From a virus (lineage: Duplodnaviria; Heunggongvirae; Uroviricota; Caudoviricetes), in IMG/VR virus record IMGVR_UViG_2695420589_000007: a stretch of DNA of 4,558 nt; one strand, given 5' to 3'. The notes below the pieces were generated by a model, which saw nothing but the letters and a program-made list of their open reading frames with translations, was not told the DNA's origin and did not search any database. The translations under genes and the position numbers were made by a program. Positions 4,352-4,558 of the stretch are shown here, piece after piece (positions within the stretch are counted from its first letter, which is position 1; each line of letters begins with the position of its first letter).

Positions 4352-4418
4352 GTTCTTTTTTTGTGGTGAAAGATGAGGCAAAATTATCGCGTAACATGCT
4401 AACAATGGAGTTTGTTTT

Positions 4419-4550
4419 GTGATAAAGCCATTTTTAATGACGGTTGCAATATTAACCTCTTGCTGTGCTCAGGCGAAAATACTAACAAATGAGGAGATTG
4501 TTTCACGATTTATTAGTAACGTTAAAACGGTGATGCTGCCAACTTACTGA
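4419..4550 (+). CDS. Hypothetical small protein (43 aa), possible lipoprotein precursor
   Basis: Not in the ORF track (short, GTG start). GGAG at 4407..4410 with an 8-nt spacer to GTG 4419. Product MIKPFLMTVAILTSCCAQAKILTNEEIVSRFISNVKTVMLPTY: a basic residue at position 3, a hydrophobic stretch, and LTSC resembling a lipobox, with stop TGA 4548..4550. Lies in a visibly AT-rich stretch after the tape measure stop. Could equally be non-coding. Confidence 0.25.
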   Translation: MIKPFLMTVAILTSCCAQAKILTNEEIVSRFISNVKTVMLPTY

Positions 4551-4558
4551 TTTAGTGT

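Follow-up and report, generated by a model that had tools for sequence, protein, structure and literature searches.

The window analysed here, a stretch of 4,558 nucleotides from the IMG/VR virus record IMGVR_UViG_2695420589_000007 (Caudoviricetes), holds the tail module of a prophage that is phiP27-like and has a contractile tail of the Mu type. The genes for the sheath, the tube, a tail assembly protein and the tail tape measure protein are followed, after base 4351, by an AT-rich segment with the beginning of an accessory gene, and the window ends 30 bases into a copy of the insertion sequence (IS) element IS1. The best overall explanation of this segment, with a probability of roughly 80%, is a moron cut by IS1, whose intact product would be exported and would act as a binding or blocking protein in the cell envelope. 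The anatomy itself, an IS1-cut stub of an accessory cassette, is scarcely in doubt. An open reading frame (ORF) of 43 codons, initiated by GTG, occupies 4419-4550 and has a GGAG sequence 8 nt upstream of its start; no in-frame start lies further upstream of 4419, and a TAA stands at 4392-4394. The change of composition after 4351, which the initial annotation described as abrupt, is borne out by the guanine-plus-cytosine (GC) content, which is 0.345 at 4352-4528 against a mean of 0.529 (standard deviation 0.042, minimum 0.429; z = -4.4) in the 3934 N-free windows of 177 nt within 1-4351. The codon usage is likewise unusual, as had been stated, with a third-position GC content of 0.31 in the ORF and of 0.55-0.59 in the sheath, tube and tape measure genes.

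Although the start and the Shine-Dalgarno sequence of this ORF are present as described in the initial annotation, its end is foreign. Because bases 4529-4558 are identical to the IS1A end that adjoins the IS1A transposase gene in E. coli MG1655, codons 38-43 (VMLPTY) and the TGA stop at 4548-4550 belong to IS1. More than 56,000 sites in E. coli genomes match this 30-nt end, which is found in 4305 of the 5426 genomes. The DNA in front of it behaves quite differently: 11 complete E. coli genomes match at 97-100% from the 3' end of the tape measure gene to base 4528 and no further (NZ_CP065613 is 100% identical to the window over 4352-4528), and all 11 read on in frame to 160 codons. The whole element is found in contig AKNE01000057.1 of Shigella sonnei 4822-66 (locus L014), which has a single mismatch in 3853 nt against the window. 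In this contig, IS1 is 768 bp long, encodes a PF03400 transposase and is bounded on both sides by CGTTAAAAC, a 9-bp target duplication. The assignment to IS1 is based on the terminal inverted repeat in the window and on the 768-bp element and the 9-bp duplication in L014, which are not in the window itself. Removal in silico of IS1 and one copy of the duplication from L014 gives a 160-codon ORF identical to the protein of E. coli FDAARGOS_944 (locus L001), WP_000594909.1.

The junction, CGTTAAAAC followed directly by GGTGATGC, is absent from all 5426 complete E. coli genomes searched. The truncated product, read from Met7, exists among public proteins as EIQ51669.1, a hypothetical protein of 37 residues from S. 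sonnei 4822-66, and a 37-residue partial protein that ends exactly at the junction is found in further S. sonnei assemblies. On this sequence evidence, the 43-codon ORF is a pseudogene stub with an IS1-derived end, and this truncated copy almost certainly has no function. An independent, complete gene for a mature lipopeptide of about 29 residues, as first proposed, has the ribosome-binding site, the signal-peptide-like N-terminus and the lipobox in its favour, but it is barely credible when its last six codons and stop are inverted-repeat sequence, when the long frame continues in 11 of 11 complete E. coli genomes with the cassette DNA and returns once IS1 is excised, and when the stub stops inside the N-terminal helix predicted for residues 24-41 and contains none of the barrel that follows. 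There is no such natural lipopeptide; the native protein has 160 residues. The initial annotation had also considered that the segment could be the N-terminal part of a larger downstream gene in another frame, and this turned out to be right in a modified form: the larger gene exists, with 160 codons, but it is in the same frame and is cut by IS1.

The intact cassette can be described from E. coli FDAARGOS_944, in which the tape measure gene is followed by an AT-rich leader of 67 nt, a gene of 483 nt, a hairpin (AAGCCGCCAGAAATTGGCGGTTT) with a T-run behind it, and the DNA-circularization gene, which is Mu N-like. In phiP27, E300082 and STEC276, only 15 bp and no insert separate the tape measure gene from the DNA-circularization gene, and the two breakpoints of the alignment to these three coincide with the stop of the former and the ribosome-binding region of the latter. 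The cassette is dispensable for all three. Among the 931 E. coli genomes that share the 3' end of this tape measure gene, only 11 have the 596-bp insert. A further 101 complete E. coli genomes have a version that is about 66% identical at the nucleotide level; L005, the one locus of this kind inspected, has it at the corresponding position of another Mu-type tail module, and phage vB_EcoM-720R4 has the same version in the same slot. The GC content of the full insert is 0.37, compared with 0.52 around it, and in the seven loci measured in which the gene lies between a tape measure gene and an N gene it is 0.34-0.42 for the gene and 0.48-0.56 for the flanks. A terminator-like hairpin lies 3' of the gene in nine of the 11 loci compared, three of them found by scan (L001, L008 and L009) and the rest by eye (L004/L005, L017, L019, L011 and L018). 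Rfam gives nothing at the gathering score, and the terminator hairpin accounts for its sub-threshold matches at L001 6933-7018.

The moron concept reportedly goes back to Juhala and Hendrix, with gene 15 of HK97 as the prototype. Morons have been described as extra DNA with deviant GC content, a terminator and a promoter of their own (PMC3594210). The cassette has the extra DNA between adjacent genes, the deviant composition and its own terminator, while a simple promoter scan gave no match; in this last respect it may differ from the typical moron. It further resembles known moron elements in its position at a gene boundary of the tail operon beside the tape measure gene, in a GC content far below that of its neighbours, and in the predicted envelope targeting of its product. 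The suggestion in the initial annotation that a moron or accessory gene lies between the tail genes is therefore supported, and the cassette is a horizontally acquired, AT-rich insert between the tape measure and N-like genes. The features of the window are listed in Table 1.

Table 1. Genes and sequence features of the 4,558-nt window
Feature	Position	Strand	Remarks
Sheath gene	51-1547		
Tube gene	1547-1903		
Tail assembly protein gene	1903-2238		
Tail tape measure gene	2323..4351	+	TGA stop at 4349-4351
N-run, 65 N	3854-3918		Inside tape measure gene; duplicated 14-mer GAAATTAAAGGGCC on both flanks
AT-rich 5' leader of inserted cassette	4352..4418	+	Shine-Dalgarno GGAG at 4407-4410
Native 5' part of accessory gene	4419..4528	+	Codons 1-36 and first two bases of codon 37, of 160
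Lipobox-like LTSC, residues 12-15	4452..4463	+	
Alternative signal peptidase I (SPase I) site AQA/K, residues 17-20	4467-4478		
Left copy of 9-bp IS1 target-site duplication, CGTTAAAAC	4520..4528		Same 9-mer after IS1 right end in L014
Left terminal inverted repeat of IS1 (its first 30 bases), GGTGATGCTGCCAACTTACTGATTTAGTGT	4529..4558	+	

The 65-N run that interrupts the tape measure gene is a scaffolding artefact with no biological meaning, since its flanks overlap by exactly 14 bp in the near-identical L014, where the tape measure ORF is continuous over 649 codons. An 84-nt stretch (2238-2322) separates the stop of the tail assembly protein gene from the start of the tape measure gene; this spot is the usual place of the programmed frameshift extension of the tail chaperone in Mu- and P2-type tails. 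An ORF of 35 codons on the reverse strand (4399..4506) runs against the conserved forward gene, which it overlaps, and was disregarded.

The IS1 copy has the same terminal repeat as other IS1A-type elements (768 bp with a 9-bp duplication), and in L014 the same full element with its transposase; the duplication of AT-rich target DNA is also usual for IS1, and nothing about the insertion is out of the ordinary. Disruption by IS1 is unremarkable in a Shigella prophage remnant. The S. sonnei prophage is a decaying, IS-riddled remnant. At least three further IS elements have struck it: IS4-type and IS3-type elements are present upstream of its sheath gene (L014 2600-5631), and a second IS1 lies in the baseplate J region (L014 15300-15803). 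The prophage adjoins bamD/rluD, with head genes that appear to have been replaced. The sheath gene of the FDAARGOS_944 prophage is split by ISEc60, which is IS4-like (L001 1382-2572), and this prophage is probably defective too. The flank of the window at 4500-4528, taken together with the 30-nt IS1 end, is 86% identical over 58 nt to an IS1A flank at the yrhA junction of K-12 (L003 1201-1227), a likeness that may reflect the preference of IS1 for AT-rich targets or chance.

The intact 160-residue protein, of which the window encodes residues 1-37 only, gives a full-length profile match (E = 9.7e-89; residues 1-160 against positions 1-161 of 161) to phrog_5586, a PHROG family of phage proteins with no assigned function. 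Among 1.84 billion representatives, only 19 were hit by a profile search at E <= 1e-3, and the named members, from Shigella, E. coli, Yersinia and Pantoea, are all called 'hypothetical protein'. The family has no match in Pfam or NCBIfam (in Pfam not even at E <= 10), none of 13 members matches a defence model of PADLOC-DB at E <= 1, and a literature search for the accession WP_000594909.1 found nothing. The search for related loci with the eight-sequence alignment A3 returned one Shigella and one E. coli genome only. Three long repeat proteins (P0018, P0021 and P0025; E 3e-10 to 1.5e-5) match in 8-12 short stretches each; they were left out because repeats or low complexity probably cause these matches. 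The ratio of nonsynonymous to synonymous substitution rates (dN/dS) is 0.09-0.36 between clades, with dS near saturation; because of these values, the intact gene is judged from its sequence to be real, coding and under purifying selection. The conserved blocks of the family alignment include MPRGQFFVDV.

The family members occur in more than one genomic setting. Homologues with 35-74% identity are located between the tape measure and DNA_circ_N genes in diverged Mu-type tail modules. In the metagenomic phage contig L012, a HIRAN-domain gene lies between the tape measure gene and the homologue (2387-2974), and no N gene is reached before the contig ends; cargo genes in general may therefore favour the site just downstream of the tape measure gene as a hot spot. 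P0019, P0020 and P0023, the members that have diverged most, adjoin ParA-type and repressor genes far from tail genes, and one of their loci, L018, also has an IncFII RepA and a toxin-antitoxin pair; the contigs of these three members are apparent plasmid-prophages. Upstream of two such copies, at about 690-739 in L011 and about 2870-2918 in L018, there is a common AT-rich, near-palindromic motif, TTAAATAAATATTTAAT, which could be an operator or promoter element. Since the hairpin is kept in nine of 11 loci, including loci without tail genes nearby, gene and terminator move together as a unit of cargo and do not require tail genes in their vicinity.

These settings bear on a reading in which the protein is tied to the tail or baseplate or to the late lytic cycle, for example as a receptor-masking protein that keeps progeny from being lost on debris, or as a modulator of lysis. 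The order of tape measure gene, accessory gene and DNA_circ_N gene recurs in the diverged lineages, the L012 copy also comes after a tape measure gene and its HIRAN-domain neighbour, and such a role would explain an apparently promoterless place in a late tail operon. It is quite improbable all the same: the Sec signal peptide would remove the protein from the cytoplasm, where tails assemble, the gene is missing from phiP27, E300082 and STEC276 and, where E. coli genomes share this 3' end of the tape measure gene, from 920 of 931, the homologues on apparent plasmid-prophage contigs are far from any tail gene, and the cassette's own terminator would be polar on the baseplate genes.

The native 5' part of the gene encodes a signal peptide (residues 1-14 or 1-19) and the beginning of the N-terminal helix. 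Residues 4-17 are the sole strongly hydrophobic stretch in the hydropathy profile of the full protein, and a signal peptide is found at the start of all full-length homologues, so the signal-peptide-like N-terminus proposed in the initial annotation is upheld. Since every full-length member has one, export is, by prediction, a trait of the family. The lipobox proposed with it has fared less well. The N-terminus, MIKPFLMTVAILTSC, does match a PROSITE-type lipobox pattern (K within residues 1-7, LTSC, Cys15), in which position 15 is the lowest allowed for the Cys, and divides into a basic n-region (MIK), a hydrophobic h-region (PFLMTVAI) and a lipobox of the form [LVI][ASTVI][GAS]C, but this Cys is not conserved across the family. 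The seven other full-length clades have a Cys-free, SPase-I-type signal peptide with an A/K end. The lipobox is confined to E. coli/Shigella (LTSCC) and Yersinia (LISCC), both of which also keep an AQA/K or SQA/Q site; in P0022 the pattern match falls at Cys13, below the allowed range. Because of this limited distribution, lipidation, if it occurs, would be a derived feature that is confined to one clade, for which lipoprotein status is a possibility. In the Yersinia enterocolitica homologue (L008 4976-5021), an upstream ATG (MKKPIYLC…) is out of frame with the called start (MMLISCC…), and an indel of one nucleotide would join both into a proper lipoprotein signal peptide; this copy appears to be frameshifted in its signal-peptide region or to contain a sequencing error.

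The structure of the intact protein was predicted by AlphaFold 2 (AF2) with the 13-sequence alignment A4, to which distant homologues had been added. The model has a mean predicted local distance difference test (pLDDT) score of 85.4 and a predicted template modelling (pTM) score of 0.78; a model from the eight-sequence alignment A3, with a pLDDT of 40.7, was discarded. In the model, residues 1-22, the signal peptide, are of low confidence, residues 24-41 form a helix, and an antiparallel barrel of eight beta-strands follows. Cys57 and Cys150, which are near-invariant in the alignment, are located in the first and last predicted strands; this conservation and the order of the strands make a periplasmic C57-C150 disulfide that closes the barrel plausible. 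Foldseek searches of PDB and BFVD gave nothing at E < 1e-3, and a sequence profile search of PDB gave chance-level matches only (E >= 0.07). The fold class, which does not amount to a family, is that of uncharacterised Burkholderia proteins, Tp0751, the type VI secretion system (T6SS) immunity protein BtaiB, the lysozyme inhibitors PhiA, PliC and MliC, avidins and lipocalin-like proteins. The predicted barrel is one with no close structural relative.

Other functions are conceivable for the intact protein. It could be a periplasmic inhibitor or immunity protein directed against a lysozyme or other peptidoglycan hydrolase, as MliC and PliC are, or against a T6SS effector or colicin, with no part in blocking phage entry. 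MliC and PliC are likewise periplasmic, and their family, too, includes lipoprotein and soluble variants, as the lipobox-bearing and soluble periplasmic versions do here. The signature motifs of MliC/PliC are SxSGAxY and YxxxTKG. Both are absent from the alignment, no member matches the Pfam MliC family (PF09864) or any other family even at E <= 10, Foldseek brings up none of these inhibitors at E < 1e-3, and the present family has an extra N-terminal helix and is about 50 residues longer, so that an inhibitor of this kind is improbable.

Eight beta-strands behind a signal peptide are also what would be expected of an integral outer-membrane barrel of the Lom/Ail/OmpX type, that is, of a moron for virulence or serum resistance, and the lom gene of phage lambda is also a moron in the tail region (PMC3594210). 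However, the family has no Pfam hit to any outer-membrane-protein family, most of the predicted strands have only 5-8 residues, the C-terminus is acidic (…MKDINDD) and lacks the terminal aromatic residue typical of outer-membrane barrels, and the conserved Cys pair and the N-terminal helix of 18 residues do not fit this type. An integral outer-membrane protein is very unlikely.

The history and function of the element, in the explanation preferred here, can be outlined as follows. An AT-rich cassette that consists of a leader, the 483-nt gene and an intrinsic terminator was acquired horizontally and entered precisely between the tape measure and Mu N-like genes. In the Shigella sonnei-type prophage remnant of the window, IS1 inserted after base 4528, duplicating CGTTAAAAC and splitting the gene after codon 37. 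The intact protein would be exported by Sec. In the E. coli/Shigella/Yersinia clade it may be anchored to a lipid through Cys15 and, because residue +2 is not Asp, be sent to the outer membrane; alternatively, SPase I may release it after AQA19. It would fold in the periplasm with the C57-C150 disulfide and, located in the lysogen's envelope, would work as a small protein that binds or blocks. The leading candidate for its role is superinfection exclusion, through binding of an incoming tail component or of an envelope receptor; this mechanism, which is argued from analogy, can be put forward tentatively.

Several other envelope proteins of phages act in exclusion, among them Llp of T5, Cor of phi80, N15 and HK022, Ltp of TP-J34 and Spackle of T4. 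Like the intact protein as predicted here, these are phage-encoded proteins of the envelope or periplasm with a signal peptide and are encoded among tail genes, and they are plausible analogues in mode of action. They are not related to it in sequence or fold: Llp and Cor are much smaller, while Ltp and Spackle are helical. A precedent in genomic position is gp15 of HK97, a superinfection-exclusion protein of the envelope that is encoded by a moron in the tail operon next to the tape measure gene (PMC3594210). HK97 gp15/YebO is a small inner-membrane protein, whereas the unrelated cassette protein is predicted to be an exported beta-barrel of 160 residues.

Three points weigh against a cassette that acts in the envelope of the lysogen. 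First, neither sequence searches nor confident fold comparisons connect the family with any exclusion, inhibitor or defence protein that has been characterised. Second, a simple consensus scan, which weak or non-consensus promoters may escape, found no sigma-70 promoter sites upstream of the cassette in L001, L004 or L009; for this reason the gene may be made only late, together with the tail genes, and not from a repressed prophage. Third, the gene is found so often between a tape measure gene and an N gene that a functional tie to the tail genes, and not a permissive junction, could be the cause.

For the window, the result is a correction: what looked like a mini-lipoprotein gene is a stub made by IS1, which has been annotated as a hypothetical protein of 37 residues. 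The intact gene marks a small family with no Pfam or NCBIfam model, whose members are predicted exported barrels carried as cargo by temperate phages of Enterobacterales; the family is uncharacterised yet conventional phage cargo. A more specific proposal, which is rather doubtful, is that WP_000594909.1 and phrog_5586 found a family of periplasmic or lipid-anchored barrels that block superinfection by binding a component of contractile tails delivered to the periplasm. If it were true, the candidate targets would be the tape measure protein, the tail tip or a peptidoglycan hydrolase, the recurrent placement beside the tape measure gene would be explained, and the destruction of the gene by IS1 in S. 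sonnei would belong to the prophage decay of this lineage. Should the protein turn out to act in exclusion or immunity, phage-phage competition at the level of the envelope would gain a new fold, which makes the family a modest, testable lead.
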